Positions 40,304 through 61,906 of a stretch of DNA of 64,000 nt are shown here, piece after piece. Position numbers and translations under genes: made by a program. Every line of letters starts with the position of its first letter. The first letter of the stretch is position 1. Origin of the DNA: an uncultured Gammaproteobacteria bacterium (GTDB lineage Bacteria > Patescibacteriota > Microgenomatia > JAMCZE01); contig CAZXMM010000001.1 in the NCBI GenBank assembly GCA_964641255.1, forward strand, positions 409,984 to 473,983. The letters run 5' to 3'. Under the pieces are notes generated by a model. It worked only from the letters and a program-made list of their open reading frames with translations. It was not told where the DNA came from and searched no databases.

Positions 40304-41760
40304 TGAAACGTTACATTCCTTACTGGCTATTTTGGTTATTATTTATTTTTTTAGCTCTAGTTTTTAGAGACTCTTTCACCCACTTCTTCTTGGCAGATGA
40401 CTTTTTTCATATCATTCTCTCCAGAGGTGAAGCGCTCATTGGGGCGTTTAATATCTTTGAGCGCGCTTTTCGGGAGTATTATATTTACCGCCCCCTAACT
40501 ACTCAGTTATTTTGGACGGTGGGAGAGTCTCTCTTTGGATTAAACCCACTCCCTTATCACGTAATAAATTTTGCTTTTTACCTGGTTAATATCATTTTAG
40601 CTTATAAAGTTGGAAGGTTACTTTTGGGGTCGCCGCGCAGAGCCGGGCTAGTCACCCTTGTTTACGCCCTATCAGGGTCTCACTTTTACCGGCTTTTCTT
40701 TCTGTCTACTATTCAGGATACGGTTATGGCCACGCTGGTTATGTCAACACTCCTGCTGTATGCCAAAAACAGGAAGTTAGCTTTTGTGGCCTTTACTTTA
40801 GCACTAACCGCTAAAGAGACAGCGGTGACTACCCCAGCGATGCTTTTTGCTTATGACCTCTTAATCAACAAAAAATTTGCCCCCCGCGTCATTAGCTACG
40901 GCATAATTTCGGTTCTTTATTTTGCCGCCCACAAATACTTTTTTGGATTTTATCAAGGCGGGCTTTACACCTATGAATTTGGCTTACGAAGTACCATCAC
41001 CAATTATCTTTGGTACTACTTCTGGTCATTTGGCCTTCCCGAAGATTTTGTAAACGTTGGAGTGTTATCTCGTACTTTTTTTACGGGGGGGCAAGTACTT
41101 CAGACTTACGGCTGGTTTGGGCAAATCATTTTTTATCTTTTTCTCGCCCTTCAATCTTTGCTGGCTGTTGGGGCAACGCTCTGGTTAAAAACCCGTTTGC
41201 AGTGGCGCACCGTTCTTTTTGGGATAGCTGTGTTTATAGCCTTTGTGTTGCCGGTGGGCTTTTTCCCCTTTCACAAGTTTGCAATTAATTTGGCGGCCCC
41301 GCTGTTGGGGGTGGCACTGGTAGTTAGTGTGATCGTTGGCAGGATAAAATGGCTAACTTTTCTGGTGATTTTAGTTATGGCTATACTCCTTAGTCTTACG
41401 GTCGACTTTAACACTAATAATCACTGGATTAGTAAACGGGGCAAAATAGCCAGGGATACACTTACTCAGCTCAAAGAGCGCTATCCGCAGGGACTGGACG
41501 GCCAAACGATTTACGTTCGCAATAACTTCCAGTATCATTGTAAAATTGACCCAGGCGAGCAAAAGAACTCGGCCGAAATTGCCTATAGCCTGGCCTACCG
41601 CGACGGTCTGGACGTCTTTTATCCGAGAGATAACTTTAGTGTCTATTTCGAGGACTTTGATCAGAATGCCCACTGTGATATGTCTGTCGCCCTCGTTGAT
41701 GGTTGTAGAATTATCCGCACGGTTAAAGCCGATAGGGATCACTGTCCGAAAGGAGAATAA
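40303..41760 (+). CDS. Polytopic membrane protein with C-terminal extracytoplasmic domain, unknown function (GT-C-like or polymerase/ligase candidate)
   Basis: 485 aa. About 11 TM helices are followed by a roughly 130 aa hydrophilic C-terminal domain. TAATG overlap with the upstream gene. Confidence 0.4.
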   Translation: MKRYIPYWLFWLLFIFLALVFRDSFTHFFLADDFFHIILSRGEALIGAFNIFERAFREYYIYRPLTTQLFWTVGESLFGLNPLPYHVINFAFYLVNIILAYKVGRLLLGSPRRAGLVTLVYALSGSHFYRLFFLSTIQDTVMATLVMSTLLLYAKNRKLAFVAFTLALTAKETAVTTPAMLFAYDLLINKKFAPRVISYGIISVLYFAAHKYFFGFYQGGLYTYEFGLRSTITNYLWYYFWSFGLPEDFVNVGVLSRTFFTGGQVLQTYGWFGQIIFYLFLALQSLLAVGATLWLKTRLQWRTVLFGIAVFIAFVLPVGFFPFHKFAINLAAPLLGVALVVSVIVGRIKWLTFLVILVMAILLSLTVDFNTNNHWISKRGKIARDTLTQLKERYPQGLDGQTIYVRNNFQYHCKIDPGEQKNSAEIAYSLAYRDGLDVFYPRDNFSVYFEDFDQNAHCDMSVALVDGCRIIRTVKADRDHCPKGE

Positions 41761-45726: not shown

Positions 45727-46548
45727 ATGATTAAGCCGATTATCATTCGTCCTAGTGAGCCGTGGTGGAAAATTGATTTTGCCGAAATTTGGCAGTATAA
45801 AAATTTGTTGTATGTTCTGGCTTGGCGTGATGTAACTGTTAGGTATAAGCAAACAGTTCTCGGGATTCTCTGGGCAGTTTTTCAGCCGTTGGTGACGACA
45901 GGTATTTTTAGCATCTTCTTTGGAACCATCGCCAAAATTCCTTCCGATGGACTGCCTTACCCACTGTTCACTTTCATCGGCCTTGCTTTGTGGAATTTTT
46001 TTTCAAGTGGAATAGCAAATGCCAGCAACAGTCTCATTACTAACGCGAGTATAATTACTAAGGTATATTTTCCCAGGTTTTTAGTTCCCTTTGCTTCAAT
46101 TGCTACATCTGGTGTCGATTTTGCCATTACACTTTTATTAGTTCTGGTAGCAATTTTATTATATGGCTACATACCCTCGATCCAAACTTTATACGTCTTT
46201 CCCATGCTTTTAGTAATTCTTGTTTTAGCCATGGGAGGACTGGGTCTAATGACAGCAGCGATCAATATTAAATTCCGCGATGTCCGTTATATTCTGCCTT
46301 TCTTCATTCAAATTGGTTTGTACATTACGCCAATTATTTATCCATTATCTGTGATTCATGATTATAGGCGGTGGATTTTAATGTTGAATCCTATGACGGC
46401 AGTTATTGAGAGTAGCCGTGCTTTGGTTAATTCAGCCTCATTGGATTGGCTAATGATTTCGATTGGGTTTTTAGTTGCCTTGGGGTTATTTATCCTTGGG
46501 CTCTATTTATTTAGGAAAACAGAATATTTATTTGTTGATATATCCTAA
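45727..46548 (+). CDS. ABC-2 type polysaccharide/teichoic-acid exporter permease (Wzm/TagG-like)
   Basis: 273 aa with 6 TM helices. N-terminal WRDVTVRYKQTVLGILWAVFQPL is the ABC-2 family signature. Confidence 0.8.
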   Translation: MIKPIIIRPSEPWWKIDFAEIWQYKNLLYVLAWRDVTVRYKQTVLGILWAVFQPLVTTGIFSIFFGTIAKIPSDGLPYPLFTFIGLALWNFFSSGIANASNSLITNASIITKVYFPRFLVPFASIATSGVDFAITLLLVLVAILLYGYIPSIQTLYVFPMLLVILVLAMGGLGLMTAAINIKFRDVRYILPFFIQIGLYITPIIYPLSVIHDYRRWILMLNPMTAVIESSRALVNSASLDWLMISIGFLVALGLFILGLYLFRKTEYLFVDIS

Positions 46549-46550
46549 CA

Positions 46551-47768
46551 ATGCAACCTATTATTGAAGTTAAAAATCTATCAAAGAAATATAGCTTAGG
46601 TTCATATCAACCTTACGAAACCCTTCGAGATACTATAGTAAGCTTATTTAATAAGCAGGGACTACACTCTAATAAATTAAAAAAACAAGAATTCTGGGCA
46701 CTAAAGGACATTAATTTTGAAGTACAAAAAGGCGAAGTTATTGGCATTATCGGCAGAAATGGGGCAGGCAAAAGTACCCTTCTTAGAATTCTAAGTCGAA
46801 TAACGCTTCCGACAGAAGGCGAAGCAATTATGCATGGACGGGTGGCCAGTCTGTTGGAGGTGGGAACGGGATTTAGTCCCGAGCTAACAGGCCGGGAAAA
46901 CATTTTTTTAAATGGTGCAGTTTTAGGGATGGGGCGCAAAGAAATCCAACGAAAATTTCAGGCTATCGTTAATTTTGCTGAAATAGGCAAGTTCATTGAC
47001 ACACCAGTCAAATACTATTCATCAGGGATGTATACCAGGCTAGCTTTTGCAGTAGCGGCTCATCTAGAGCCCGAGATTTTGATCGTTGACGAAGTATTGT
47101 CAGTTGGGGATTTAAGATTTCAAAAGAAGTCTTTAGGAAAGATTGAAGATTTGACCCATGCGGAAGGAAGGACAGTTTTGTTTGTTAGCCATAATATGGG
47201 AGCTGTAAACCAATTATGTCGTCATACTATTCTTTTGGATGGTGGAAAAGTGGTGTTTTATGGAGCTACAGAGGAAGCCATTCGGTTGTATTCGCTGCAG
47301 AGCTTTGATAAAAACCAATTTAAAACTGTGCTTCAGGGGGATTTAGCGACTACACTAAAGCTAACCCAGATTTTTATTAACAATAAAGAGGCTAATAATC
47401 AGGTGCTATTGCCGAATCAAAGCATTGAATTTAAGGCGAAATTTAAGAGTAAGAAGAAAAACTCTAACCTAGTCATTAATTTTTCGTTATATAAAGATGG
47501 TCAGAGGCTTTTTACATTAAGTGATACAGAAAACCCGAGAGATCAACCCACAGGAAATTTTATCTCCGAATTTCAAATTCCAAGCTACTTATTACGTCCA
47601 GGTTATTATTCCATTGCCTTGGGTGGGTATCGTGTGGGCAGTGGTGAGTGGTGCTGGGGTACCGATTTAGCAGGATTTACCATAGCAGAGGTTTGGGACA
47701 GGAAAAATATACAAACTAACTTAGGAATTTTCAATCTACCCAATTATGGGCAACGAAAAAATGAATAA
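46551..47768 (+). CDS. ABC exporter ATP-binding protein (Wzt/TagH-like) with about 150 aa C-terminal extra domain
   Basis: Walker A GRNGAGKST, signature YSSGMYTRLAFAVA, Walker B ILIVDEVLSVGD. The C-terminal 150 aa (YKDGQRLFTLSD...GYYSIALGGYRV) is beta-rich, as in Wzt carbohydrate-binding domains. Confidence 0.8.
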   Translation: MQPIIEVKNLSKKYSLGSYQPYETLRDTIVSLFNKQGLHSNKLKKQEFWALKDINFEVQKGEVIGIIGRNGAGKSTLLRILSRITLPTEGEAIMHGRVASLLEVGTGFSPELTGRENIFLNGAVLGMGRKEIQRKFQAIVNFAEIGKFIDTPVKYYSSGMYTRLAFAVAAHLEPEILIVDEVLSVGDLRFQKKSLGKIEDLTHAEGRTVLFVSHNMGAVNQLCRHTILLDGGKVVFYGATEEAIRLYSLQSFDKNQFKTVLQGDLATTLKLTQIFINNKEANNQVLLPNQSIEFKAKFKSKKKNSNLVINFSLYKDGQRLFTLSDTENPRDQPTGNFISEFQIPSYLLRPGYYSIALGGYRVGSGEWCWGTDLAGFTIAEVWDRKNIQTNLGIFNLPNYGQRKNE

Positions 47769-48492
47769 ACAAAGAAAGGTAATTACGAGAAGAACATGCT
47801 TTCCCCTTTGGGATGTAATTTTATTACACAACAAAATAGAAAACTTACCTCGTTTATTTAGGGCTATGGAATTATTTTTATGGGAATTCGCCTTCTTTAC
47901 CAGCGTCAATCGTCACGAACCAGTTGATAAAAACTTACAGCCTGTCCCGTGGTTAACGTATCCTGCTATCGAATTTTTAAACAGATTAAATTTTAAATCT
48001 AAATCGGTTTTTGAATTTGGGGCAGGTAATTCCTCACTTTATTTTTCAGGAAAGGGTGCTAGTGTTTTCAGTGTTGAGAGTGATTTACACTGGTATAATA
48101 GGCTTAGTCTCAGGATAGCTAATAATAACAAGCTTTATTACGCCAAAACCAAGAAGGAATATCTAGAGTCAATTAAAAAACCAAGGACAAAATTTGATGT
48201 AGTTCTAATCGATGGGCTTTATAGGTATAGCAGTTCTTCATTAGCAATCAAATATCTCAAACCAACCGGTTTTATTATTTTGGATAATAGCGAGTGGTTT
48301 CCTAGGGCGTTTGCCCAGCTCGAAAGTTGTGGGTTTACGCACGTCGACTTTAGTGGCTTTAGCCCATTTAATGACTACACACTTACCACCTCAATTTTTT
48401 TTAAAAAGTCTAGTTCCTTTGATTTTGATTCTGATAAAAATGCTCACTACTCGATTGGCTCGATAAAGCACATTTCCCCCGAGGACCGTTAA
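47761..48492 (+). CDS. Putative SAM-dependent methyltransferase (class I fold)
   Basis: FEFGAGNSSLYFSGKGASVFSVESD (G-x-G motif I) and VVLIDGLY (motif post-I/II). ATG at 47761 overlaps the ABC ATPase stop (ATGAATAA). Confidence 0.5.
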   Translation: MNKQRKVITRRTCFPLWDVILLHNKIENLPRLFRAMELFLWEFAFFTSVNRHEPVDKNLQPVPWLTYPAIEFLNRLNFKSKSVFEFGAGNSSLYFSGKGASVFSVESDLHWYNRLSLRIANNNKLYYAKTKKEYLESIKKPRTKFDVVLIDGLYRYSSSSLAIKYLKPTGFIILDNSEWFPRAFAQLESCGFTHVDFSGFSPFNDYTLTTSIFFKKSSSFDFDSDKNAHYSIGSIKHISPEDR

Positions 48493-48502
48493 GTTATTAA
48501 TC

Positions 48503-49375
48503 ATGAAGATTTATATTTTGCCAGTCGATAAGGAATTGCAACCGCACAAACAACCTTTTAAGTATCCAAAACATAACAATTTTTATGGTGTTGAGCAGGA
48601 CTTTTATGCATTTTTAACTACACATCGTCAGTTGTTGACAACTGATGAAAATAAGGCTGATTGGCATTATCTACCGATTTATTGGACACGACGACATCAT
48701 AATAAAGGTACTAGCAATGCGGCCCTTAAAGAATTGCAAGAAAAAGTTGACAAAATCATAGTAAACTCAAAAAAAACCTTTACCATTTGCCAGTATGATG
48801 ATGGACCTATGGTCAAATTAGGCAAAGGACAAGTTTTTCTATCCTCAAGAAAGTCGTACGTTGGCCTTGATATTCCTTTATTATCCGCGACTCATCGGTT
48901 TCCGCTGTTTAAACAATCAAAAAAGTATTTAGCTTCCTTCGTTGGAAGATTCTCAACACACCCTATACGACAGAGAATGGCTGAAAAGCTGAGTAACAGA
49001 CCTGGTCTTTTTATTAAAGACGGTGAGATCTCAGAAGGCGACTTTGTTAAGTTGATTCTAAGATCATATGTTTCGCTTTGCCCCCGAGGCTATGGGGGAA
49101 GTTCTTTTAGATTTTTTGAATCTCTGCAGTTAGGTGTTGTTCCTTTAATGATAGGTAATGTAGATACGAGACCCTTTAAAGAGTTTATTGACTGGAATGC
49201 TATTTCTTTTTTTGCTCGCGACGAAAACTCTGCCCTAGCTATTTTAGAAAAAGCAAATCTTAAACAGCTACTCAATATGGGTCAGAGAGCGCTGTCATTT
49301 TATCGATCAGATCTAGACTATGGCAAATGGTGTAAATACGTTATTATGGAACTGAAAAGGAGACAGTCTCAATAG
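48503..49375 (+). CDS. Exostosin-like (GT47 family) glycosyltransferase
   Basis: C-terminal LCPRGYGGSSFRFFESLQLGVVPLMI matches the exostosin-family consensus C-P-x-G...S-x-R-x-x-E-x-x-x-x-G-C/V-x-P-V. Confidence 0.5.
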   Translation: MKIYILPVDKELQPHKQPFKYPKHNNFYGVEQDFYAFLTTHRQLLTTDENKADWHYLPIYWTRRHHNKGTSNAALKELQEKVDKIIVNSKKTFTICQYDDGPMVKLGKGQVFLSSRKSYVGLDIPLLSATHRFPLFKQSKKYLASFVGRFSTHPIRQRMAEKLSNRPGLFIKDGEISEGDFVKLILRSYVSLCPRGYGGSSFRFFESLQLGVVPLMIGNVDTRPFKEFIDWNAISFFARDENSALAILEKANLKQLLNMGQRALSFYRSDLDYGKWCKYVIMELKRRQSQ

Positions 49376-49496
49376 TCTAGACCTTACTAAACATTATCGC
49401 CGGCACATGCCAGCAAAATTGTGAAAGTTCGAGTCCTGAAAAGAAATATAAAATAATTGTTATTAGTCAAACTGTTTTTATAGAAATCATAAAAAG
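49376..49496. promoter_or_regulatory. Largest intergenic spacer in the locus (121 bp, AT-rich); putative internal promoter / operon boundary
   Basis: Sequence ...gaaatataaaataattgttattagtcaaactgtttttatagaaatcataaaaagATG. The flanking genes are otherwise overlapping or separated by fewer than 15 bp. Confidence 0.35.
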
Positions 49497-50366
49497 ATGA
49501 TAAATCTAAGTTTTTTTATCCCTGCCTATAACTGCGCGACAACCATTGCAGAAGCTGTTGATTCAATTTTCAAGGCTAATTTTGTTAAGGGCGATGAAGT
49601 AATTATTGTGGACGACTGTTCAACTGATCGGACACTAAGAGCTATAACGGCTCAGATGAAAAAGCACCCCGAAATTTTATTGCTAAAACATCCGTTCAAT
49701 AAGGGCGCTGGTGCGGCACGGAACACGGCAATTGAACAAGCTCGGAACAAGCTAGTCTTTTGTTTAGACTCGGACAATTTGCTAGTTCCCAATAGCGTAA
49801 GACCGCTACTTGCCTATCATATCGAAACTAAGTCTGACGCCAGTGCCTTTCAACAGTTGCATTTTTTCAAGAAAACTCCCAGGCATGTTACCCATAAATG
49901 GACATTTCATCCTGGTGTGTATACTCTATCTGAACATCTTTCAAAGTCACAGCTTCCTGGAGCAAGTGGTAATTATTTATTCTCGAAGCAGGCTTGGCTT
50001 AGGGCGGGTCGTTATCCAGAGTTTGTTGGGGCATTAGATTCTTGGTCTTTTGGCTTGCGTCTTCTCGCCACCGGTTCGAAGATGTCAGTCTTTGAGAATA
50101 CGCATTACTTCCATCGCTTTGGCCATGAATCAGATTGGGTGCGGTATTCTCAAAAAAAACACTTTTTTTCTTTAGCTGCTTTGCAGGTAATTATTCCTTT
50201 CCTGGACTTGCTTGATCCGAAGGACATTGAATATATTATGAGTAAAAAAGGAAGGTACAATTGGTTTGAGCACATAGAAAAAAGGCCAATTCGCCTCAGA
50301 AAAACACCGATACAAAGTAGCCGTATCAGAGAGCTAATAAATAAATTAGGTAGTATTAAATCATGA
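49497..50366 (+). CDS. GT2 family glycosyltransferase
   Basis: FIPAYNCATTIAEAVDSI, VIIVDDCSTDRT and CLDSDN. Confidence 0.75.
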   Translation: MINLSFFIPAYNCATTIAEAVDSIFKANFVKGDEVIIVDDCSTDRTLRAITAQMKKHPEILLLKHPFNKGAGAARNTAIEQARNKLVFCLDSDNLLVPNSVRPLLAYHIETKSDASAFQQLHFFKKTPRHVTHKWTFHPGVYTLSEHLSKSQLPGASGNYLFSKQAWLRAGRYPEFVGALDSWSFGLRLLATGSKMSVFENTHYFHRFGHESDWVRYSQKKHFFSLAALQVIIPFLDLLDPKDIEYIMSKKGRYNWFEHIEKRPIRLRKTPIQSSRIRELINKLGSIKS

Positions 50367-51010
50367 GACTACATTTAGGATGTGGAGAAAATTATTTGAA
50401 GGGCTATTGTAATATCGATTTTTCATCGACGCATCATACAGTTCAAAAAAAAGGTGTGGCTGACAGATATGCCAATATTCTCAACTTAAAATATAAGAAA
50501 AGTTCAATTGAAGAAATACGACTGCATCATGTTTTTGAGCACTTTTCTCGAGCTATAGCTTGTGCATTATTGGTTAGTTGGCATTCATGGCTAGAGATTG
50601 GGGGACTTCTCAGAGTTGAAGTTCCTGATTTTGAAAATACTAGTAAGATTTTTGGTAGACTCCTTTCTACTGAACACCAAAGAAATGTCGCAATGCGACA
50701 TATTTTCGGGTCACAGGAAGCTAGCTGGGCAGTGCATTATACAGGTTGGACTGAAAAGACCCTGACTGCTCTTCTTAATAAGCTCGGGTATTCCATTGAG
50801 AAAGTAAATAGATTTACATACAAAGGAACATCAAATCTGGAAGTTTTCGCGCGTAAAGCGCAAAATGATCTTTCAAACGACGCTTCCACTAAAGTAGTCA
50901 AAAGTTTTCTGAAATCTTTCACTCTTGACGGATCTACATCTGAAAAAGAGATTTTATCTGTTTGGCTAAGTGAGTTTAAAAGCCAAGTAGCTAAAGGAGT
51001 ACGGAAGTGA
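50363..51010 (+). CDS. Putative class I SAM-dependent methyltransferase
   Basis: N-terminal MRLHLGCGENYLKGYCNIDF (LxLGCG motif I), then HVFEHF. Confidence 0.5.
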   Translation: MRLHLGCGENYLKGYCNIDFSSTHHTVQKKGVADRYANILNLKYKKSSIEEIRLHHVFEHFSRAIACALLVSWHSWLEIGGLLRVEVPDFENTSKIFGRLLSTEHQRNVAMRHIFGSQEASWAVHYTGWTEKTLTALLNKLGYSIEKVNRFTYKGTSNLEVFARKAQNDLSNDASTKVVKSFLKSFTLDGSTSEKEILSVWLSEFKSQVAKGVRK

Positions 51011-51741
51011 AAGGTGTCAGCGTGGTTATCCCCACTTATAATCGGGAAAAGTTTTTAACGGCAACCATAAATAGTGTACTTAAACAGACTGTCCCCGTTT
51101 TGGAGATTCTGGTTTGTGATGATGGGTCAATGGACCACAGTCGTCAGGTGATAAAGAAAATTGGCAGTACAAAGGTCCACTGGATTGCTGGATCCCACAC
51201 CGGATTGCCAGCTGTAGCAAGAAATCGAGGTATTGAACGGTCAAAAGGGGAGTTGATTGCATTTTTGGACAGTGATGATACCTGGCTACCAGAAAAAATG
51301 GCCAGGCAACTACCTTTTTTTGACGACCCCAAAGTACTAGGGGTAAGCGCGAATGCTTTACGGATGGTGAAAACTATTGAGAGTGGTCGTGTTATCGTTG
51401 GAAACAATAGCAATCTTTCTGTTGCTTCTCTTTTGTTCCAAAATTCAGTCATCTGCAGTTCAATGGTGGTTCGTCGATCTGCCTTGGAAGCTACTGGGGA
51501 CTTCTCTGAAAAAAATTCACTACGAGGATTTGAAGACTATGCCCTTTGGCTTAGGGTGGCAGCCCTTTTTCCGATCAGCTTTGTTGCCGAGCCGCTAGTT
51601 CGTTATCGTGACGAGTTTCAAGACAGTCTGCGTTATGAGTCCGAAAGGGATGTTGTGAAGCAAAAACTTGAAGTATTAAAAAATTTTCTTCCCTGGCTAA
51701 TTTACCATTTTCCATTAATTATTTCATACCACATGCAATGA
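51007..51741 (+). CDS. GT2 family glycosyltransferase
   Basis: GTG start. VSVVIPTYNREKFL, LVCDDGSMDHS and FLDSDDTWLPEK. Confidence 0.75.
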   Translation: MKGVSVVIPTYNREKFLTATINSVLKQTVPVLEILVCDDGSMDHSRQVIKKIGSTKVHWIAGSHTGLPAVARNRGIERSKGELIAFLDSDDTWLPEKMARQLPFFDDPKVLGVSANALRMVKTIESGRVIVGNNSNLSVASLLFQNSVICSSMVVRRSALEATGDFSEKNSLRGFEDYALWLRVAALFPISFVAEPLVRYRDEFQDSLRYESERDVVKQKLEVLKNFLPWLIYHFPLIISYHMQ

Positions 51742-53450
51742 TTGAGATTGGATTATTGGTTGTGGCAACAGGTAAATATATTCAATTTGTCGATCCTTTA
51801 TGGAAGTCAACTAAAAGGTACTTTCTTAAGCAACGCAATATCAGAGTAACTATGTTTGTTTTTACTGATTCTGATACTGTTCCAGCTGGAACTAAACGCC
51901 TGTTTTGGGAACATCGCGCCTTCCCCTTCGCCACTCTTCTTAGGTACCATGTGTTTACAAAGTACCAAAAGACCCTAAAGAAGATGGACTACCTCTTCTA
52001 TTGCGATGCTGACATGGAATTTGTTTCACTAGTAGGCGAAGAGATTCTTGGTAAACGAGTCGCCACCCTTCACCCAGGCTTTTATACTAAAGCTCGAAAA
52101 GATTTTACTTATGAAAATAATTCTAAGTCGACTGCCTATATTTCTCCTGATCAAGGGAAAGCGTATTATTGCGGTGGTTTCAATGGGGGAGAGGTAAAAG
52201 AATTTTTGAATATTGCCCGGATTCTAAAAAGGAATATTGATAAAGATTTGAAAAATGGCATTATCGCTTCACATAACGATGAAAGCCACTATAATTGGTA
52301 TCTCGCTAAACACCTTCCCACGTTGGTTCTTTCACCCTCATACTGCTATCCAGAAGATCTCTTACCAGCGGTTCGGGCGAAAGATCTGAAAAGCGGGATT
52401 AATAAGTTAATTTGGTTTCCGAAGCAACTGTTGGAACTAAAACCAAAATTAATCGCCAGAAGCAAAGACCATAGCAAAATTCGGTATACCGGGATTCGAC
52501 TGTTAATCGAAACACTTATCCAGTCTAAAGAAGTTCTTTTCCTGAAGGGTTTTACTATTCTTAACAGGGTTAGAGTTGAATGGGTTAGGCTAAAATGGCA
52601 CTACTTAAGATTGAAGGAGCAAAGCTATCGTAATTATCTTTTGCAACCGCCTATAAAGGTTATTCAGGTCTCACAAAATAGCGCTGCTAACAGAATGCTC
52701 CTCGTCACAGTGGCCTTTAATTGCGTCTGGACTATAGAGGCGCAAATAGATGCTTTAAAAAAGAACCTTCAGGATCCTTTTACTCACATAATAATTGATA
52801 ATTCTAGTGATAGTGCTAGACGATCAGAAATAGAACAAGTGGCTCGCACAAAGGGGGTGGGTTACATCTCTTTGCCGAAAACACCTTCACATATTTCACC
52901 GAGCATGTCTCATGGACTAGCTCTCAATTATGCTTGCAACTGGACTAGTAAGCACCTTGCGAAGTATGTAGTAATTGGCTTTTTGGATCATGATATTTAT
53001 CCATTCAAGTCGACAAATCTATTTCCAATTATGAAAAAGCAGCCCTTTTACGGCCTCTTACAAAATAGAGAAGAAAAGTGGTACTTATGGCCGGGCTTCA
53101 TGTTTTTTAATAGAGATTTCAGCAACAGTAAGCAAATAAATTTTCTTCCTCAAAATGGTCTTGATACTGGTGGAAGGAATTGGGAATCTATCTACCGCCA
53201 CATAGAAAAATCTTCAATTGAATTTCCCCAGCAGTTTTACGTATCCCTCAGTGACTATAAAAAGCTTCGCAATATTAATGCATTTCCTAAAATACCAATT
53301 TCCAAAAAGAATCAGCTAGTGAAAAAAGATCAATTAATAGAGATAATAGATAGCTGGGTGCATGTGTTTAATGCGTCGAATTGGCGAAAAGCAAATGATA
53401 AGGAAAAAGAAGTTAAAGAATTCTTACTATGGCTAAACAAGCATTCATAA
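51738..53450 (+). CDS. Two-domain glycosyltransferase: N-terminal GT6 domain (ABO blood-group / alpha-1,3-Gal(NAc) transferase family) fused to a C-terminal GT-A (GT2-like) domain
   Basis: N-terminal half aligns motif by motif with mammalian/bacterial GT6: FVFTDSD, DYLFYCDADMEFVSLVGEEILGKRVATLHPGFY, FTYENNSKSTAYISPDQGKAYYCGGFNGGEV and NDESHYNWYLAKHLPTLVLSPSY. C-terminal half (from about aa 300) reads LLVTVAFNCVWTIEAQI...IIIDNSSDSARR...YVVIGFLDHDIYPF, which looks GT-A. Confidence 0.8.
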   Translation: MIEIGLLVVATGKYIQFVDPLWKSTKRYFLKQRNIRVTMFVFTDSDTVPAGTKRLFWEHRAFPFATLLRYHVFTKYQKTLKKMDYLFYCDADMEFVSLVGEEILGKRVATLHPGFYTKARKDFTYENNSKSTAYISPDQGKAYYCGGFNGGEVKEFLNIARILKRNIDKDLKNGIIASHNDESHYNWYLAKHLPTLVLSPSYCYPEDLLPAVRAKDLKSGINKLIWFPKQLLELKPKLIARSKDHSKIRYTGIRLLIETLIQSKEVLFLKGFTILNRVRVEWVRLKWHYLRLKEQSYRNYLLQPPIKVIQVSQNSAANRMLLVTVAFNCVWTIEAQIDALKKNLQDPFTHIIIDNSSDSARRSEIEQVARTKGVGYISLPKTPSHISPSMSHGLALNYACNWTSKHLAKYVVIGFLDHDIYPFKSTNLFPIMKKQPFYGLLQNREEKWYLWPGFMFFNRDFSNSKQINFLPQNGLDTGGRNWESIYRHIEKSSIEFPQQFYVSLSDYKKLRNINAFPKIPISKKNQLVKKDQLIEIIDSWVHVFNASNWRKANDKEKEVKEFLLWLNKHS

Positions 53451-54070
53451 ATGTAACATACGAATCTCTTGTCACACCACCACTTGCTATTGGTGCGTGG
53501 ATACGAAAGGATTTTCCTGGTTTTGATAGGGATTACTTGGCAATCCATTGTTTAATCAGAAAGTATCAGCCCAAAACTTTCCTTGAAATTGGAACAAGCA
53601 CGGGGTTGGGAACCAAAGTAATTTGTACAGCTATTGGGATTAGGAAAGCCCATTGGTGGAATTTATTTGGTTCCCACGACGTATCAACACCAAAGGTTTT
53701 TTCAATCGATGTACCTCCAGGTACTGATCCAACAATTATTTATCCCGCAAAAGAAGACGGTCACCCAGATAAGACAGGAAAATACTGCAAATTTCCCTTC
53801 ACGCAGCTATTTGGCGACTCCCAAACATTTAATTTTAAACCGTACTATCCATTAGATGGTTGGTTCATCGATGGCAAACATAACTTTGAATTTGCTAGTA
53901 AGGATACAAGACAGGCTTTGAAGGCTAAAGCTAAGATAATTATCTGGCATGATATGCAAATCGAAGATGTTGCTCGTGCTGTAGAAATCGTTATGAGAAA
54001 GCAGAAACGATATAGCTGTTATCGTGTTGCGCAAACTCGAATCGCTTTCGCTGTACGCAAGATATCATAA
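53429..54070 (+). CDS. Class I SAM-dependent methyltransferase (CmcI/TylF-like O-methyltransferase fold)
   Basis: FLEIGTSTGLGTKVI (motif I), DGWFIDGKHNFE and IIIWHDM. Confidence 0.55.
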   Translation: MAKQAFINVTYESLVTPPLAIGAWIRKDFPGFDRDYLAIHCLIRKYQPKTFLEIGTSTGLGTKVICTAIGIRKAHWWNLFGSHDVSTPKVFSIDVPPGTDPTIIYPAKEDGHPDKTGKYCKFPFTQLFGDSQTFNFKPYYPLDGWFIDGKHNFEFASKDTRQALKAKAKIIIWHDMQIEDVARAVEIVMRKQKRYSCYRVAQTRIAFAVRKIS

Positions 54071-54957
54071 TGATTATTGTCAAATTAGTGGGTGGCCTGG
54101 GAAACCAAATGTTTCAATACGCGACCGCCCGCGCTCTTGCCGAAAGACACCGTTGTGAATTAAAGCTAGATACTAGTTGGTTCCGCAAGCCTGGATCAGA
54201 TACCCGCCGTTCTTACGGTCTAAGAGTTTTCAATACCGTTAAGGCCCAAGCCACGAAACGGGAAATTAATGCTGTCAAACATCGGAGCGGAAACAAATTG
54301 GACCGAATATTAAGAAGCCATTTTCGGGGTTTTTTTCCGTTGCGTAAAAGCTATTTCTTTGAAGAAAGCGCTCTTCATTTTAGCCCGGAAGTCCTTAAAC
54401 TGACCGATAATTCTTATTTGGAAGGCTTCTTTCAGTATTTGGCGTATTTTCAATCGATTGAAAAAATATTGCAGGATGAATTTCAGTTTATTAAGCAACC
54501 CAACAAGAAAAACAAGCTAATTTTAGATAAAATAGAGATACAAAATTCAGTGTCTGTCCATATCAGGAGAAAAGACTATATTTCTAATAAAAATTATCGT
54601 AGTTATTTTGCCCATCCTAGTAGGCTATATTATAAAAAGGCTATGGAAATGATTAATCGAAAAGTGCCCAGTCCTGACTTCTATATTTTTTCTGATGATA
54701 TACCTTGGGTAAAAAAGCATTTTAAAAATAATCATAACATGCATTTTATTTCCCATAATAAAGGGAAAAACGATTTTGAAGACATGAGACTTATGCAAAG
54801 CTGTAAACACAATATCACTGCCAATAGCTCCTTTAGCTGGTGGGCAGCATGGTTGAACCAAAATCCTCACAAGATCGTAATTACCCCCCGTAAATGGTAC
54901 CAAGACAAATTAGCCGAAATGACTGGGAAGTTTCCTCCTAATTGGACAAAGCTATAA
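54070..54957 (+). CDS. GT11 family alpha-1,2-fucosyltransferase
   Basis: Diagnostic GT11 motifs: MIIVKLVGGLGNQMFQYATARALA, SVHIRRKDYIS and ANSSFSWWAAWLN. Confidence 0.85.
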   Translation: MIIVKLVGGLGNQMFQYATARALAERHRCELKLDTSWFRKPGSDTRRSYGLRVFNTVKAQATKREINAVKHRSGNKLDRILRSHFRGFFPLRKSYFFEESALHFSPEVLKLTDNSYLEGFFQYLAYFQSIEKILQDEFQFIKQPNKKNKLILDKIEIQNSVSVHIRRKDYISNKNYRSYFAHPSRLYYKKAMEMINRKVPSPDFYIFSDDIPWVKKHFKNNHNMHFISHNKGKNDFEDMRLMQSCKHNITANSSFSWWAAWLNQNPHKIVITPRKWYQDKLAEMTGKFPPNWTKL

Positions 54958-54960
54958 ATT

Positions 54961-55764
54961 ATGAAACCACTCATTTCTTATAAGAAAAACGTGTTCTCCC
55001 AGAATGGTGAAGACGGAATTATTGCAGAAATTTTTAGACGTTTGAGGGTGGATAGTGGAGTTTGTATCGAATTTGGGGCTTGGGATGGAATTCATCTAAG
55101 TAATATCCGTAATCTGGTTATAAACGGTTGGACTGGAATATTTATTGAATCCGATAAGGAAAGGTTTAATCAACTAAAAAAGAATTATGCACAAAATAAA
55201 AATGTTATAAGCATTAACGCTACTGTCGGCTCTGGTATAAATAGCCTCCGAGCTATCTTTAGAAGAAAAGGTATCTCACTTTATTTAAATAAAATAGATT
55301 TTTTGAGCATAGATATTGATGGCCTGGATCATCATATTTTTGAGTCGTTAGATTTTAATCCTAAATTAATCTGTATTGAAGCAAATTCTGCCTTTTCACT
55401 AAATGAAAGTCTAAACCAAACTCTCTATTCGAAGGAAACGGGGAGATCTCTTCAATGCTTAACCACGATTGGTGAGTCTAAAAACTATGTTCTCATTTGC
55501 TTCACGGGCAATTGCCTTTTTTTAAGAAAGGATTTATTGGAGCAAACCAATTTGGAAGAGTTGTCTGTTAAAGAAGCTTACACAGCTTTCTTGGACTACC
55601 TAACAGAAAATGAGCGCCAATGGTTATTTCTAGTAAATCTAGGTTTAGTATTTCCGTACCGCCATTTCAAAAATACTTATCTTTCTCTTCAAAGTTTACA
55701 TTTATTGCCTCATCAAATTGCCCTCGCTATTGGCAAACTCTTAAGAGCTAAATTACTCGGATAA
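54961..55764 (+). CDS. FkbM-family methyltransferase (putative)
   Basis: N-terminal FSQNGEDGIIAEIF...GVCIEFGAWDG resembles the FkbM-domain start (SQxGED...DxGA). Confidence 0.45.
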   Translation: MKPLISYKKNVFSQNGEDGIIAEIFRRLRVDSGVCIEFGAWDGIHLSNIRNLVINGWTGIFIESDKERFNQLKKNYAQNKNVISINATVGSGINSLRAIFRRKGISLYLNKIDFLSIDIDGLDHHIFESLDFNPKLICIEANSAFSLNESLNQTLYSKETGRSLQCLTTIGESKNYVLICFTGNCLFLRKDLLEQTNLEELSVKEAYTAFLDYLTENERQWLFLVNLGLVFPYRHFKNTYLSLQSLHLLPHQIALAIGKLLRAKLLG

Positions 55765-55771
55765 TGGATTT

Positions 55772-56848
55772 ATGAATCGTTTTAAACCAGTAAAACTATC
55801 GGTAATAATGCCTGTATATAATGGTGCACTTTATCTACGAGAATCTATTGATAGCGTTCTTCGTCAGACCTTCACAAATTTTGAATTCATCATTATTGAT
55901 GATGGTTCTACTGATAAAACACAAGAAATTGTTGAGTCTTATTCTGATTTACGAATTAAGCTAGTAAAAAACTCTAAGAATTTAGGAATAGTTGACAGCC
56001 TGAATATTGGTCTGGTTAAAGCAACTGGTGAGTACGTCATCAGAGTAGACGCCGATGATATCTGTGTTAGAACTCGTTTTGAGAAGCAGGTTAAGTTTAT
56101 GGATGGTCACCCTACAGTGGGTGTTTGTGGAAGTGCCATAAGGATTTTTTCTAGAATTCCTGTGATTGGTATGACAATTGTAAAGCCTGTTAGCCATCGT
56201 GAGATCGTCTCGGAAATGCTTTTTCGCAATGTTATCCAACACCCAACTGTCATTTTGAGGAAAAACCTTTTCCAAAAGTACAAGCTTCGCTACCGGAGTT
56301 TATATCCACATGCGGAAGATTATGATTTGTGGTCCCGGGCCGGTAGGCTTTTTGATTTGGCAAATCTTCGTGAAGCCTTGTTGTATTACCGCTATCATTC
56401 AAAATCGATAGGCGCTACTTCTAATATCGTTCAACAAGCTAATGTTAGACAAGTCAGGCAAGAATATTGGAAATCATTGGGCATCAAACTTGATCCCGAC
56501 GAAATTGCTTTATTGCACAGTGTCTGCGACCTGTCTGTTGCTCCGATAGACGAGTTTACAGCTGCAAAGGTAGGAGCAGCCTTGTTAAGCTTTCAGTCCC
56601 AAGTGAATAAAAAAAATCTCTTTCCGCCGAAGTTTATTTCTAAACATACCTCCAAGCAGTGGTACGCTTTTTGTGCCAAACTCTCCACTCTTGGCCTAGT
56701 GGCCTGGAGATTATATTGGCAGTCTCCTCTTAGCAAAGCGGCAGCTTTGAGCATTTCAGATCGATTAATTTTCCTAATGCATTGTTCATTAAAAATGAGC
56801 GACTTTACTCTCCAAAGGAAACTTGCCAGACTGATTGCCGGTTGGTAG
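55772..56848 (+). CDS. GT2 family glycosyltransferase with about 120 aa C-terminal extension
   Basis: LSVIMPVYNGALYL, FIIIDDGSTDKT and RVDADDI. Confidence 0.8.
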   Translation: MNRFKPVKLSVIMPVYNGALYLRESIDSVLRQTFTNFEFIIIDDGSTDKTQEIVESYSDLRIKLVKNSKNLGIVDSLNIGLVKATGEYVIRVDADDICVRTRFEKQVKFMDGHPTVGVCGSAIRIFSRIPVIGMTIVKPVSHREIVSEMLFRNVIQHPTVILRKNLFQKYKLRYRSLYPHAEDYDLWSRAGRLFDLANLREALLYYRYHSKSIGATSNIVQQANVRQVRQEYWKSLGIKLDPDEIALLHSVCDLSVAPIDEFTAAKVGAALLSFQSQVNKKNLFPPKFISKHTSKQWYAFCAKLSTLGLVAWRLYWQSPLSKAAALSISDRLIFLMHCSLKMSDFTLQRKLARLIAGW

Positions 56849-56857
56849 TCTCAATAT

Positions 56858-58033
56858 ATGAAAATACATACGATAGAGAAAATTGGCTCCGAAAACAGTT
56901 TACGGCTGCAATTTCCCATAACCTTTGACGGCAAGGAAAGGAACTTCCCTACTGCTTTGTATTATCAAATAGAGAAAAAATTTGAATCCTTGTTAAGTTT
57001 AAATAGCGACAGTGCTCTGGTGGCCATGCTCCTTTTGGCAATGAACCTTAAAGAGGATATCTTTGTGGAAGGATCCGTTTCAGAACAATTGATTAATAAT
57101 TTGCTGAAATATCAAGATATTGTTCATGAATGGTTTCCCAAAACCTTCTACAAAATAAAAATATCTGCCGAGCACATTGTTAGCGAAACTAAATTGAAGA
57201 ACAAAGCCGTGGGGATGGGTTTCTCTGGAGGTGTAGATTCCTTCTACACTCTTTGGAGCCATCTTGCCCCGCAAGAAAAAGATGCTTCAAAGAGGGTGAC
57301 CCACGGGATCTTTGTTCATGGTTTTGATTTTTCTCTGCCTAAAAGAGCCAGCTATGATCGCGCCTATGAGGCCTACAAGGTAATGCTTGAAAGCCTTGGC
57401 CTTACTCTAATTGGTGTGGAGACTAACATCAGGCAGTTCACTGATTATTACAGTTGGGAGATGGCCCATGGCTCCGCCCTGGGAAGTTGTGCCTTACTGT
57501 TTGAAAAAGTTTTTGGCACTTTTTACATTGCCTCGTCAGATGTTCCAGCGGCACTTAAGCCACTTGGCTCGCACCCCGACCTTGATCCACTGTTATCTAG
57601 CAATCAGATGACGGTAGTTCATGATGGATTGCAAAGTTCAAGGGTAAAAAAGATAAAAGCCCTTATCACCTGGCCACTCACTTACGATAATCTTCGGACT
57701 TGTTGGAGAAATCAGGACGGAGTGAAGAATTGTGGGCGGTGTGATTATTGTCTGCGGGTAATGGCAATCCTGGAAGCATTTGGAGTTTTAGGAAAGTACA
57801 CAACCTATCCTCCCTCGTTCTCTTATAACAGCTTAATAAATGCTCAATTTGTCTCAAAAAATCGCCAAATAATTGCCGACGAGATTATTGCTCTGGCTAA
57901 GAAGAATCATAATGAAAAACTCGCCGGTGCAGTAAAACGGGCTAAAGAGCGTGGTGCCCTGCTTTTTAAAATCAAACCACTTACTGACTTTGTTGACCAG
58001 ACGATTTATCACCTTATGCATAAGTACCAATGA
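56858..58033 (+). CDS. QueC/ExsB-like PP-loop ATP pyrophosphatase with C-terminal Cys cluster and about 110 aa N-terminal extension; putative sugar amidotransferase/amidoligase
   Basis: PP-loop GMGFSGGVDSFYTL (SGGxDS). C-terminus TCWRNQDGVKNCGRCDYCLRVMAILEAFG matches the QueC zinc-site pattern C...CGxCxxCxxR...G. Confidence 0.5.
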   Translation: MKIHTIEKIGSENSLRLQFPITFDGKERNFPTALYYQIEKKFESLLSLNSDSALVAMLLLAMNLKEDIFVEGSVSEQLINNLLKYQDIVHEWFPKTFYKIKISAEHIVSETKLKNKAVGMGFSGGVDSFYTLWSHLAPQEKDASKRVTHGIFVHGFDFSLPKRASYDRAYEAYKVMLESLGLTLIGVETNIRQFTDYYSWEMAHGSALGSCALLFEKVFGTFYIASSDVPAALKPLGSHPDLDPLLSSNQMTVVHDGLQSSRVKKIKALITWPLTYDNLRTCWRNQDGVKNCGRCDYCLRVMAILEAFGVLGKYTTYPPSFSYNSLINAQFVSKNRQIIADEIIALAKKNHNEKLAGAVKRAKERGALLFKIKPLTDFVDQTIYHLMHKYQ

Positions 58034-60688: not shown

Positions 60689-61906
60689 ATGCGTAGTCTG
60701 ACTCAAAGCATCATCCTAACCGGCGGTACCGTCGTTAACTCTGTCTTGGGATTAGTATTTTACATTGTTATCGGCCGCACACTTTCTCTTGAGGCAGTAG
60801 GTTATTTTTCCTTTCTTTTAGGAATTGGGGTGCTTGCCGCTGACATTGGCGATCTAGGGGTGAGCCCCAGCATTATCCGCTTTGGACACGGTGACAGATT
60901 CCGAGCGGTTTTTTCAGTCGCTCTCCTTCAGCGAACTATGGTTGGTGCCATTTTTTTTGCCACTGCGCTGATAGCCCAACAATTCTATCCCGCTAATTTC
61001 TTTCTATCAGCGCTAGTGGCCTCATGCTTACTGCTCCTTTCTACAATCCTGCAGTCATTTTTAGCCAAACAAAGGTATGGTCTTTATGTTGGCGCCAGTC
61101 TTCTGAGCAATATTTTTCGCTTAGGAGCGGTACTAGGGCTCATCTCAGGGAGTCTGCTGACGATAGACAGCGCCCTCCTAGCTATGGTGGCCGCCAATCT
61201 CCTAGCTCTTAGTCTTGGGTTTATCGCCCTTTGTCTTTTAGAGAGAGGGCTTCCTTTGGTAAGGTCGGGTTTGAGCAAAATGTTGGGAGAAATGGCCCGT
61301 TTTGGCAGCTTTCTCGGTTTTTCGCTTTCGGTTAGCGCCCTAGCCTCCAAACTGGATAATCCCTTAGTCTTTTCGCTGGCTGGTCCCCAAGCGGCGGGGC
61401 TGTATTTTACCGCTCAGCGCTTAAGTTCCATTGTTCCCCAGGTAGCCGGCTCTCTTGATGGTGTCTTTGCCCCGAAGTTTTCTAAAGGCGAGGAAATTCG
61501 CAAACACTTTCGGGAATACGTGCTTTTTGCCGGTGTAGCAGCGCTAGGAATCTTGGTCGTGGTACCTTTCACTCCCTTGTTGCTTGCCTTTATCTTCGGT
61601 CCCAAATACGAGCTGGCAGCTCGGCTGCTTCAGGTTCTGTTTGTGGGAATGAGCCTTTTTATCTTTTCTGGTCCCTTCACTTCCTCACTGATATACCGGT
61701 TTAGTCAGACCAAGCTCCATTTTTTTACATCTCTTGTGCAACTGGCACTGAGCGTCGCCTTTATGGCTCTGCTAATTCCCCATTTTGCGGCCACTGGGGC
61801 GGCTTTGGCCTTTGTCATTGTCCAAGGACTGGATCTAGTAGCCATGATCAGTTTATATATAATCTTTAATTCGCGTGATCAAAATAACCACTCACACTCT
61901 CGTTAA
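60689..61906 (+). CDS. Wzx-type flippase / polysaccharide biosynthesis membrane protein (second copy)
   Basis: 405 aa with about 12 TM helices. N-terminus SIILTGGTVVNSVLGLVFYIVIGRTLSLEAVGYFSFLLGIGVLAADIGDLGVS is typical of the Wzx/PST family. Confidence 0.6.
   Translation: MRSLTQSIILTGGTVVNSVLGLVFYIVIGRTLSLEAVGYFSFLLGIGVLAADIGDLGVSPSIIRFGHGDRFRAVFSVALLQRTMVGAIFFATALIAQQFYPANFFLSALVASCLLLLSTILQSFLAKQRYGLYVGASLLSNIFRLGAVLGLISGSLLTIDSALLAMVAANLLALSLGFIALCLLERGLPLVRSGLSKMLGEMARFGSFLGFSLSVSALASKLDNPLVFSLAGPQAAGLYFTAQRLSSIVPQVAGSLDGVFAPKFSKGEEIRKHFREYVLFAGVAALGILVVVPFTPLLLAFIFGPKYELAARLLQVLFVGMSLFIFSGPFTSSLIYRFSQTKLHFFTSLVQLALSVAFMALLIPHFAATGAALAFVIVQGLDLVAMISLYIIFNSRDQNNHSHSR

Follow-up and report, generated by a model that had tools for sequence, protein, structure and literature searches.

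A probable two-module glycosyltransferase joining a GT6 domain to an unannotated GT-A-fold domain in a Wzm/Wzt-type surface-polysaccharide operon

Introduction

Can one bacterial gene encode two glycosyltransferases (GTs), one of them from GT6, the family whose characterised bacterial members, makers of blood-group A/B mimics, all have a single catalytic domain? The question is raised by a gene in a 64,000-nucleotide stretch of DNA (the window) from an uncultured Gammaproteobacteria bacterium (GTDB lineage Bacteria; Patescibacteriota; Microgenomatia; JAMCZE01; assembly GCA_964641255.1, contig CAZXMM010000001.1, positions 409,984 to 473,983 of the forward strand). A preliminary description, made from the sequence of the window, had proposed that this gene fuses a GT6 domain in frame to a second GT-A domain. 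We analyzed the integrity of the gene, its two modules, its relatives, and its neighborhood. Our results make it probable that the product is a genuine two-module glycosyltransferase of a Wzm/Wzt-dependent surface-polysaccharide operon, with the module roles proposed below. Residue numbers refer to the 570-residue fusion protein and nucleotide positions to the window.

Integrity and recurrence of the fusion gene

The fusion gene occupies the following positions.

51738..53450, plus strand: complete open reading frame (ORF) of 570 amino acids in the ORF listing, comprising a GT6 domain, a helical linker, and an unclassified GT-A domain, with no internal stops

No in-frame stop was present in 51738..53450 ahead of the terminal stop, and the product was a 100% match to a database protein (P0001). 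No homopolymer run of six or more nucleotides was found in the junction region (52380-52700). The GC content was uniform over the junction, with values of 0.391 for the GT6 part, 0.388 for the linker, and 0.370 for the C-terminal domain (C-domain), and the linker region was present and alignable in fused relatives. The start codon of the fusion overlaps the stop codon of an upstream GT2 gene (ATGA). The preliminary description had claimed a single ORF free of frameshifts or stops at the junction, and this was borne out by the uninterrupted 570 codons and by the retention of the fusion in independent assemblies. The motifs that it had named were also located, LLVTVAFN at residues 321-328, IIIDNSSDS at 351-359, and GFLDHDIYP at 414-422.

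The architecture of a GT6 domain followed by a C-domain was found in 28 non-redundant proteins, of which 8 carry a DxD motif in the GT6 domain, as the query does, and 20 an NxN motif. Eight species genomes of GTDB (Gammaproteobacteria and Patescibacteria) contain the fusion, and the best match among the species representatives showed 42% identity. The fused genomes include a Gammaproteobacteria metagenome-assembled genome (L001), whose protein also has 570 amino acids, an unclassified bacterium, and members of Nomurabacteria, Parcubacteria, Saccharibacteria, and Paceibacterota.

These data bear on whether two separate genes were falsely united during sequencing or assembly, through a missed stop, a frameshift, or a chimeric contig. 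Separate neighboring genes, GT6 first and C-domain second, are indeed known, 4 nucleotides apart in L009 (Bacteroidales) and 72 nucleotides apart in L028. However, the continuous frame, the lack of junction homopolymers, the even GC content, and the alignable linker all speak against an artefact, as do the independent projects from which the 28 fused proteins come and the second protein of 570 amino acids among the 8 species genomes. Because the same architecture recurs in these 28 proteins and 8 genomes, a missed stop or chimeric join is very unlikely, and we give an artefact next to no probability. The fusion is a real single gene.

Split adjacent genes also occur in the reverse order, with the C-domain gene preceding the GT6 gene in L041 (Lachnospiraceae) and L066 (Neisseriaceae). 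Further fusions place the C-domain behind a GT2 domain homologous to the upstream gene of the window, behind a GT8 domain, and in front of a Methyltransf_24 domain (P0284); a triple fusion joins Methyltransf_24, GT6, and the C-domain (P0006). The fusion partners of the C-domain mirror the gene order of the window. In a neighbor-joining tree, which is crude and lacks support values, the NxN-type fusions grouped together and the DxD-type fusions were scattered among stand-alone proteins. This pattern hints that fusion or fission did not happen just once. No fused relative was found in plasmid and phage collections, where the cyanophage GT6 proteins are single-domain and the sole plasmid homologue of the C-domain is annotated as a hypothetical protein.

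The preliminary description had also stated that bacterial GT6 enzymes are single-domain. This holds for the characterised enzymes (PMC3516806) but not for the sequence databases, in which GT6 is often fused, and the view of bacterial GT6 proteins as single-domain NxN enzymes looks outdated.

Other GT6 and C-domain homologues were noted during the searches. Metagenomic GT6 domains (P0030-P0118) were fused to GT2, GT11, GT8, GT29-like (PF00777), and GT92 domains, as well as to class I methyltransferases, an NAD-dependent epimerase/dehydratase, and a radical-SAM domain. The GT6 proteins without a C-domain that were retrieved with the query comprised 35 of DxD type, 4 of NxN type, and 46 unassigned. 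Among archaeal metagenome-assembled genomes, a GT6 homologue, 50% identical to residues 2-249, was found in Candidatus Woesearchaeota (L011 and L012), and a C-domain homologue in a Methanomassiliicoccales genome (L054). GT6 had been reported as not found in archaea (PMC3961637).

The GT6 module

The first module contains the following features, with residue roles assigned by alignment to BoGT6a of Bacteroides ovatus and from PMC3961637 and PMC3516806.

51738..52487, plus strand: GT6 catalytic domain, residues 1-250 (PF03414, matches to BoGT6a and ABO, invariant K243)
52005..52013, plus strand: GT6 DxD motif D90-A91-D92 at the end of beta4, aligned opposite N95-A-N97 of BoGT6a
52170..52181, plus strand: C145-G-G-F148, aligned opposite the donor-specificity segment A155-G-G-L158 of BoGT6a (PMC3516806)
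52272..52283, plus strand: H179-N180-D181-E182, aligned opposite W189-H190-D191-E192 of BoGT6a (residue roles from PMC3961637)

Sequence matches identify module 1 as a GT6 domain. PF03414 matched residues 2-210 with an expectation value (E) of 7.8e-43 and 146.9 bits against a cut-off of 25 bits. The BoGT6a structure 4ayj aligned with residues 3-209 (E 4.5e-40), and the human ABO (A/B) transferases matched at E ~1e-36. The NCBIfam model NF041524 ('family 6 glucosyltransferase') scored 196.2 bits against a cut-off of 250, which places the domain outside that named subfamily though within GT6. In the full-length AlphaFold2 (AF2) model, the predicted local distance difference test (pLDDT) of the GT6 domain was mostly >90. 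The preliminary description had put the end of the domain near residues 230-260, in agreement with an end at about 250 once the conserved Lys/Arg tail is counted beyond the Pfam match.

Bacterial GT6 enzymes characterised so far mostly carry NxN, and DxD is linked to metal dependence (PMC3961637, PMC3516806). From its DxD motif, module 1 is predicted to be metal-dependent, like the rare enzyme of Parachlamydia. Residues H112 and G114 align with H122 and G124 of BoGT6a, positions at which His and Gly go with 2'-fucosylated acceptors and at which alpha3GT has Gln and Trp (PMC3961637, PMC3516806); a fucosylated beta-galactose (Gal) is accordingly the acceptor predicted from these residues. The donor-segment pattern xGG characterises N-acetylgalactosamine (GalNAc) transferases (PMC3961637, PMC3516806), and the C-G-G-F segment, resembling A-G-G-L of BoGT6a, predicts a preference for uridine diphosphate (UDP)-GalNAc as donor. 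The catalytic Glu E182, which corresponds to E192 of BoGT6a and E303 of human ABO, is invariant in the alignment of 23 fused homologues, and D181 is also kept. K243, the counterpart of K231 in the C-terminal tail of BoGT6a, is likewise invariant among them. R249 is present in the clade of the query and is matched to BoGT6a R243 by spacing only. In BoGT6a, K231 and R243 bind the donor diphosphate (PMC3961637, PMC3516806).

A 24-residue insertion (AVRAKDLKSGINKLIWFPKQLLEL) was observed at residues 211-234 (52368-52439), just before the conserved Lys tail. It is shared by the query and P0003-P0005, is missing from the other aligned fused proteins, and has a pLDDT of 54-57. The alignment with BoGT6a ends ahead of this region.

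The C-terminal module and its family

The second module contains the following features.

52653..53447, plus strand: GT-A-fold domain of an unannotated family, residues 306-570 (AF2, Foldseek, hhalign)
52797..52805, plus strand: D354-N355-S356, opposite the GT2 'DDGS' (nucleotide-binding Asp); D and N invariant in the family
52986..52994, plus strand: D417-H418-D419, opposite the GT2 DxD; invariant
53079..53099, plus strand: W448-Y-L-W-P-G-F454, near-invariant beta-hairpin motif (family alignment, AF2)
53160..53174, plus strand: L475-D476-T-G-G479, with D476 as inferred candidate catalytic base; D476 and G478 invariant
53355..53363, plus strand: W540-V-H542, inferred candidate for the C-terminal metal-binding His of GT-A enzymes; Trp and His invariant

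AF2 modeling on the family alignment gave a pLDDT of 91.8 and a predicted template-modeling score (pTM) of 0.90. The model has the beta-alpha-beta order of the GT-A fold, with DHD located right after the fourth strand and the nucleotide-binding Asp, D354, following beta2. Foldseek returned 318 PDB matches at E<=1e-3, and the best 50 of these, from which the fold classes were taken, were almost all GT-A glycosyltransferases of families GT31, GT13, GT43, GT25, GT2, and GT8; examples are B3GalT5, GnT-I, GlcAT-P, COLGALT1, TarP, glycogenin, and SpsA. A non-glycosyltransferase fold, which would have told against the preliminary description, was thus not what the model and its matches showed.

The affinities of the sequence profile were solely of GT2 type (PF00535, PF10111, TuaG). 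Comparison by hhalign with canonical GT2 sequences gave E 6e-5 and a probability of 65% over 88 columns confined to the N-terminal half, and paired AFN of the C-domain with PxYN of GT2, DNS with DDGS, and LDHD with LDSDD. No Pfam model matched the C-domain above threshold; weak PF00535 matches were seen in 13/45 family members, the best at 1.2e-6. The second GT-A module of the preliminary description was therefore recovered, in that the region is confidently modeled as a GT-A fold and its DHD aligns with the GT2 DxD. Sequence and modeling together describe the C-domain as a GT-A-fold, DxD-type domain distantly related to GT2, with an acceptor half unlike that of any curated or solved family.

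Among 45 diverse family members, D354 and N355, H392 (in SHG), D417-H-D419, G439, W451 and G453, D476 and G478, and W540 and H542 were invariant. Residues 300-570 matched 288 clusters at 90% identity, nearly all of them stand-alone 'hypothetical proteins' of 240-300 amino acids without a Pfam domain. An exhaustive profile search extended the family to 1,919 clusters at 50% identity (E<=1e-3), 540 of them at E<=1e-30, and most of its members are stand-alone proteins of ~270 amino acids. This abundance of stand-alone forms is the pattern expected of an autonomous catalytic module. A literature search on the signature motifs of the C-domain found no papers.

The linker helix

52491..52643, plus strand: long inter-domain helix, residues 252-302 (AF2 full-length model, pLDDT 52-82)

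The AF2 full-length model (pTM 0.53) showed two well-folded domains and a single connecting helix. Within residues 250-305, 27/56 are hydrophobic, and Lys/Arg number 10 vs 4 Asp/Glu. Stand-alone bacterial GT6 proteins end in a basic-hydrophobic-basic membrane-association segment (PMC3516806), and stand-alone C-domain proteins begin with a similar helix. By analogy, the linker is probably the membrane-association tail of GT6 joined to the N-terminal helix of the stand-alone C-domain proteins, and the literature on BoGT6a suggests that it may associate with the membrane.

Gene neighborhood of the fusion

The fusion lies in a packed same-strand operon at 45.7-63.4 kb, with gaps of -32 to +10 nucleotides except for one of 121 nucleotides. 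The order of genes is Wzm, Wzt, a gene of unknown function, GT47-like, GT2, a 215-amino-acid protein, GT2, and the fusion, followed by Methyltransf_24-like, GT11, an FkbM-type methyltransferase, GT2, a gene of unknown function, a pyruvyl transferase, DUF2142, and a Wzx-like gene. The genes most relevant to the fusion are as follows.

45727-46548, plus strand: Wzm (ABC-2 permease), at the head of the operon
46551-47768, plus strand: Wzt (ATP-binding cassette (ABC) ATPase), at the head of the operon
51007..51741, plus strand: upstream GT2 gene with a 4-nucleotide overlap with the fusion start; its homologues adjoin or fuse with the C-domain elsewhere
53429..54070, plus strand: Methyltransf_24-like gene downstream; P0284 joins this domain to the C-domain, and P0006 joins it to GT6 plus the C-domain
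54070..54957, plus strand: GT11 (alpha-1,2-fucosyltransferase family), second gene after the fusion (PF01531, E 5.7e-35)

A Wzm/Wzt pair also lies upstream of the fused genes in L001 and L003-L008, and Wzt is within 6 kb in 7/8 fused loci. In L001 the order is Wzm, Wzt with a Wzt_C domain, GT2, a CmcI-type methyltransferase, the fusion, more methyltransferases, and GT11. Linkage to GT11, defined as a distance within 6 kb and counted in loci with at least 4 kb of flank, was found for 6/6 fused loci, 8/9 split loci, 10/19 loci with the C-domain only, and 7/20 loci with GT6 only. In L040, a Bacteroidota cassette without GT6, a GT4 gene stands between the C-domain gene and GT11. This 391-amino-acid GT4 gene was considered as a counterpart of the 391-amino-acid ORF at 56858-58033 of the window, but the two are unrelated. 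The GC content of 45727-56848 is 0.34-0.42 (mean 0.384), compared with 0.429 for the whole window and 0.42-0.48 for the flanks; this low-GC region matches the portion of the operon from Wzm/Wzt to GT2. The low GC content and the recurrence across phyla are consistent with horizontal acquisition of the cassette.

Weighing of the two-module reading

Several results weigh against the protein being a two-module glycosyltransferase. The structural likeness of the C-domain to solved GT-A enzymes is moderate, with template-modeling (TM) scores of 0.34-0.47 and identities of 9-16%. Its PF00535 (GT2) score of 14-15 bits lies below the threshold of 23.3 bits, NCBIfam has no model for it and gave just three weak TuaG matches, and the family profile found no relative among PDB sequences (best E 0.66). 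The acceptor-side half, after the DxD, aligns with nothing in the GT2 profile, so the catalytic base and stereochemistry proposed for the C-domain are guesses. Literature searches found no characterised member of the C-domain family. Module 1 lacks two residues of BoGT6a, W189, which stacks on the acceptor, and H190, which contacts the donor; H179 and N180 stand in their place in the sub-clade of the query, and for this reason the specificity, or even the activity, of the module may differ from the A/B synthase model. The full-length model leaves the relative orientation of the domains undefined. An amphipathic linker was rejected because the helical hydrophobic moment is ordinary (0.1-0.4 vs a protein mean of 0.23).

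Some of these results would suit a C-domain that is a GT-A pseudo-enzyme, serving as a scaffold, in acceptor or product binding, or in recruitment for GT6 and its partners, so that the protein is monofunctional. No curated glycosyltransferase model is matched by the C-domain above its threshold, no solved glycosyltransferase resembles its acceptor-side half, and non-catalytic parts of the complexes that assemble O-polysaccharides in ABC-dependent pathways can serve as scaffolds (PMC11231755). However, the nucleotide-binding Asp, the DxD, the candidate base Asp, and the candidate metal His are invariant across the 45 members and the 23 fused proteins, and such motifs are usually lost in pseudo-enzymes. 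Most members are stand-alone proteins and hence have no catalytic partner in cis. We consider a pseudo-enzyme improbable.

The C-domain might instead be an active GT-A-like enzyme of another chemistry, namely sugar phosphate, glycerol or ribitol phosphate, or nucleotidyl transfer. The nucleotide-diphospho-sugar transferase fold is common to several non-glycosyltransferase enzyme classes, any sugar specificity of the C-domain family is putative, and the cluster holds other decorating enzymes, the methyltransferases and the pyruvyl transferase. On the other hand, the Foldseek matches listed include no nucleotidyltransferase or phosphotransferase, the profile affinities are to GT2 only, and the fusion partners are other glycosyltransferases. 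We judge this alternative to be about as improbable as a pseudo-enzyme. Each of the three alternatives, including the artefact, is less likely than a two-module glycosyltransferase.

The term bifunctional in the preliminary description stands insofar as the active-site motifs of both modules are intact; bifunctionality itself is what we infer from these motifs. Its proposal of two consecutive sugar additions stands as to the two glycosyltransferase modules. That the steps are consecutive is doubtful, because H112 and G114 match enzymes with fucosylated acceptors and a GT11 gene is linked, so that a fucosylation step probably intervenes.

Proposed mechanism

As a two-module glycosyltransferase, the protein would work at the cytoplasmic membrane face on an undecaprenyl-linked glycan exported by Wzm/Wzt, kept at the membrane by its basic-hydrophobic linker as BoGT6a may be by its tail. 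The linked GT11 would make a fucose (Fuc)-alpha-1,2-Gal epitope, to which module 1, a retaining enzyme, is predicted from its motifs to add alpha-1,3-GalNAc or alpha-1,3-Gal. Module 2 would add a different sugar to the same glycan from a nucleotide sugar bound through a metal at DHD417-419. Its affinity to GT2 makes an inverting reaction probable, for which D476 is the candidate catalytic base. The probable fucosylation step in between means that the modules need not follow each other directly. With GT11, the GT2 enzymes, and the methyltransferases, the end product would be a fucosylated, blood-group-A/B-like, methylated glycan.

Other features of the window

Two further genes of the operon and several neighboring regions were recorded.

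48503-49375: protein with an exostosin-like GT47 domain (PF03016, E 4.8e-20)
50363-51010: 215-amino-acid protein starting MRLHLGCGENY, with no Pfam match

GT47 is a mainly eukaryotic family, and homologues of this gene occur in three related cassettes (L002, L006, L027). The MRLHLGCGENY start of the 215-amino-acid protein looks like motif I of S-adenosylmethionine-dependent methyltransferases. The related cassettes L010, L038, L040, L050, and L068 also encode this protein, and in L013 it is one portion of a giant multidomain ORF. No Pfam match was found for the ORFs at 47746-48492 (248 amino acids), 56858-58033 (391), 39131-40303 (390), and 40303-41760 (485); these four operon-embedded ORFs could be further unannotated glycan-modifying enzymes. 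Two export-type components stand in one gene string, Wzm/Wzt (45727-47768) and a Polysacc_synt Wzx-like flippase (60689-61906), which suggests either two side-by-side glycan pathways or a hybrid system.

Upstream of the polysaccharide operon, region 2307-36693 contains ~20 large ORFs of 480-800 amino acids on both strands. Seven of the ten that were sampled encode GT-C-type membrane proteins (PMT_2, YfhO, PTPS_related), and the region is an unusually dense paralogous array of membrane glycosyltransferase-like genes. No tRNA gene was found in the window.

Significance

The locus would place GT6 in a two-module enzyme. The novelty lies in the partner of GT6, a module of an unannotated family; the dual-module glycosyltransferase itself is already known and is no new principle, as multi-module glycosyltransferases are standard in ABC-transporter-dependent pathways. 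A testable pathway context for the unannotated family comes from the linkage of the GT6, C-domain, and GT11 genes and from the Rosetta-stone fusions of the C-domain to GT2, GT8, and Methyltransf_24.

We put forward more tentatively, as a possibility that we hold to be rather doubtful, that the C-domain is the first recognised member of an undescribed GT family (~1,900 clusters at 50% identity) with a GT-A fold, a GT2-like nucleotide half, and a unique acceptor half recognisable by WYLWPGF, LDTGG, and W-x-H. This family would be dedicated to fucosylated H/A/B-like glycans and would accompany GT11, plus either GT6 or GT4, in a horizontally mobile Wzm/Wzt cassette of Patescibacteria, Bacteroidota, Proteobacteria, Verrucomicrobiota, and Firmicutes. 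If this is true, the GT6 fusion would give uncultured bacteria a way to make histo-blood-group-like epitopes with a single polypeptide. Definition of the activity of module 2 could yield a new CAZy family and a tool for fucosylated or blood-group-type oligosaccharides, and would help to annotate the surface-glycan clusters of gut Bacteroidota and of bacteria of the candidate phyla radiation (CPR).

Comparison with known systems

The closest characterised enzyme considered here for module 1 is BoGT6a (PDB 4AYJ, 4AYL, 4CJ8), with which the fusion shares the His/Gly acceptor residues, the xGGx donor segment, the Asp-Glu pair, and the C-terminal Lys. Both have a basic hydrophobic segment after the catalytic domain. 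BoGT6a, however, consists of one catalytic domain and a short membrane tail, carries NxN, and is metal-independent (PMC3961637), whereas the fusion has DxD, His-Asn in place of W189-H190, a 24-residue insertion, and a second GT-A domain. PaGT6 of Parachlamydia acanthamoebae is a bacterial GT6 that also keeps the DxD and is metal-dependent (PMC3516806). The analogy with PaGT6 predicts that module 1 requires Mg2+ or Mn2+ and acts on H-type acceptors with UDP-GalNAc as donor. At ~27 kDa, PaGT6 has a single domain, and its likeness to the fusion is drawn from its published description.

In ABC-transporter-dependent pathways, O-polysaccharides are as a rule assembled by multi-module glycosyltransferases (PMC11231755). 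WbdA, WbbB, WbbM, and ORF6 of the Klebsiella pneumoniae O7 cluster each carry at least two GT modules per polypeptide and are encoded beside wzm/wzt and methyltransferase genes, like the fusion (PMC11231755). The spread of modules over single- and multi-module proteins varies by cluster in these systems, as do the fused and split forms described here. The modules differ, being of GT4, GT2, or GT99 type in those systems versus GT6 and an unclassified GT-A domain in the fusion, and unlike them the fusion shows no sign of a coiled-coil molecular ruler or of repeat-unit polymerase activity.

The C-domain has the GT-A fold in common with the GT2 enzymes SpsA (1QG8/1H7Q) and TarP (6H1J) (Foldseek E ~1e-5), and the order of motifs in its N-terminal half (beta1-xN, DxS, DxD) is the same as in GT2 (hhalign E 6e-5). 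Its TM scores to SpsA and TarP are ~0.35-0.41, and its WYLWPGF, LDTGG, and W-x-H motifs lack a counterpart in the GT2 profile.

The genes for the blood-group-B mimic of Escherichia coli O86 encode WbnI (GT6), WbnK (GT11), and WbnJ (GT2) as separate proteins of a Wzx/Wzy pathway. Both E. coli O86 and the window thus bring GT6, GT11, and GT2 genes together in one surface-glycan cluster, and this shared co-occurrence suggests, by analogy, an H/A/B-type epitope. In contrast to O86, the GT6 of the window is fused to an extra module and lies in a methyltransferase-rich Wzm/Wzt operon.

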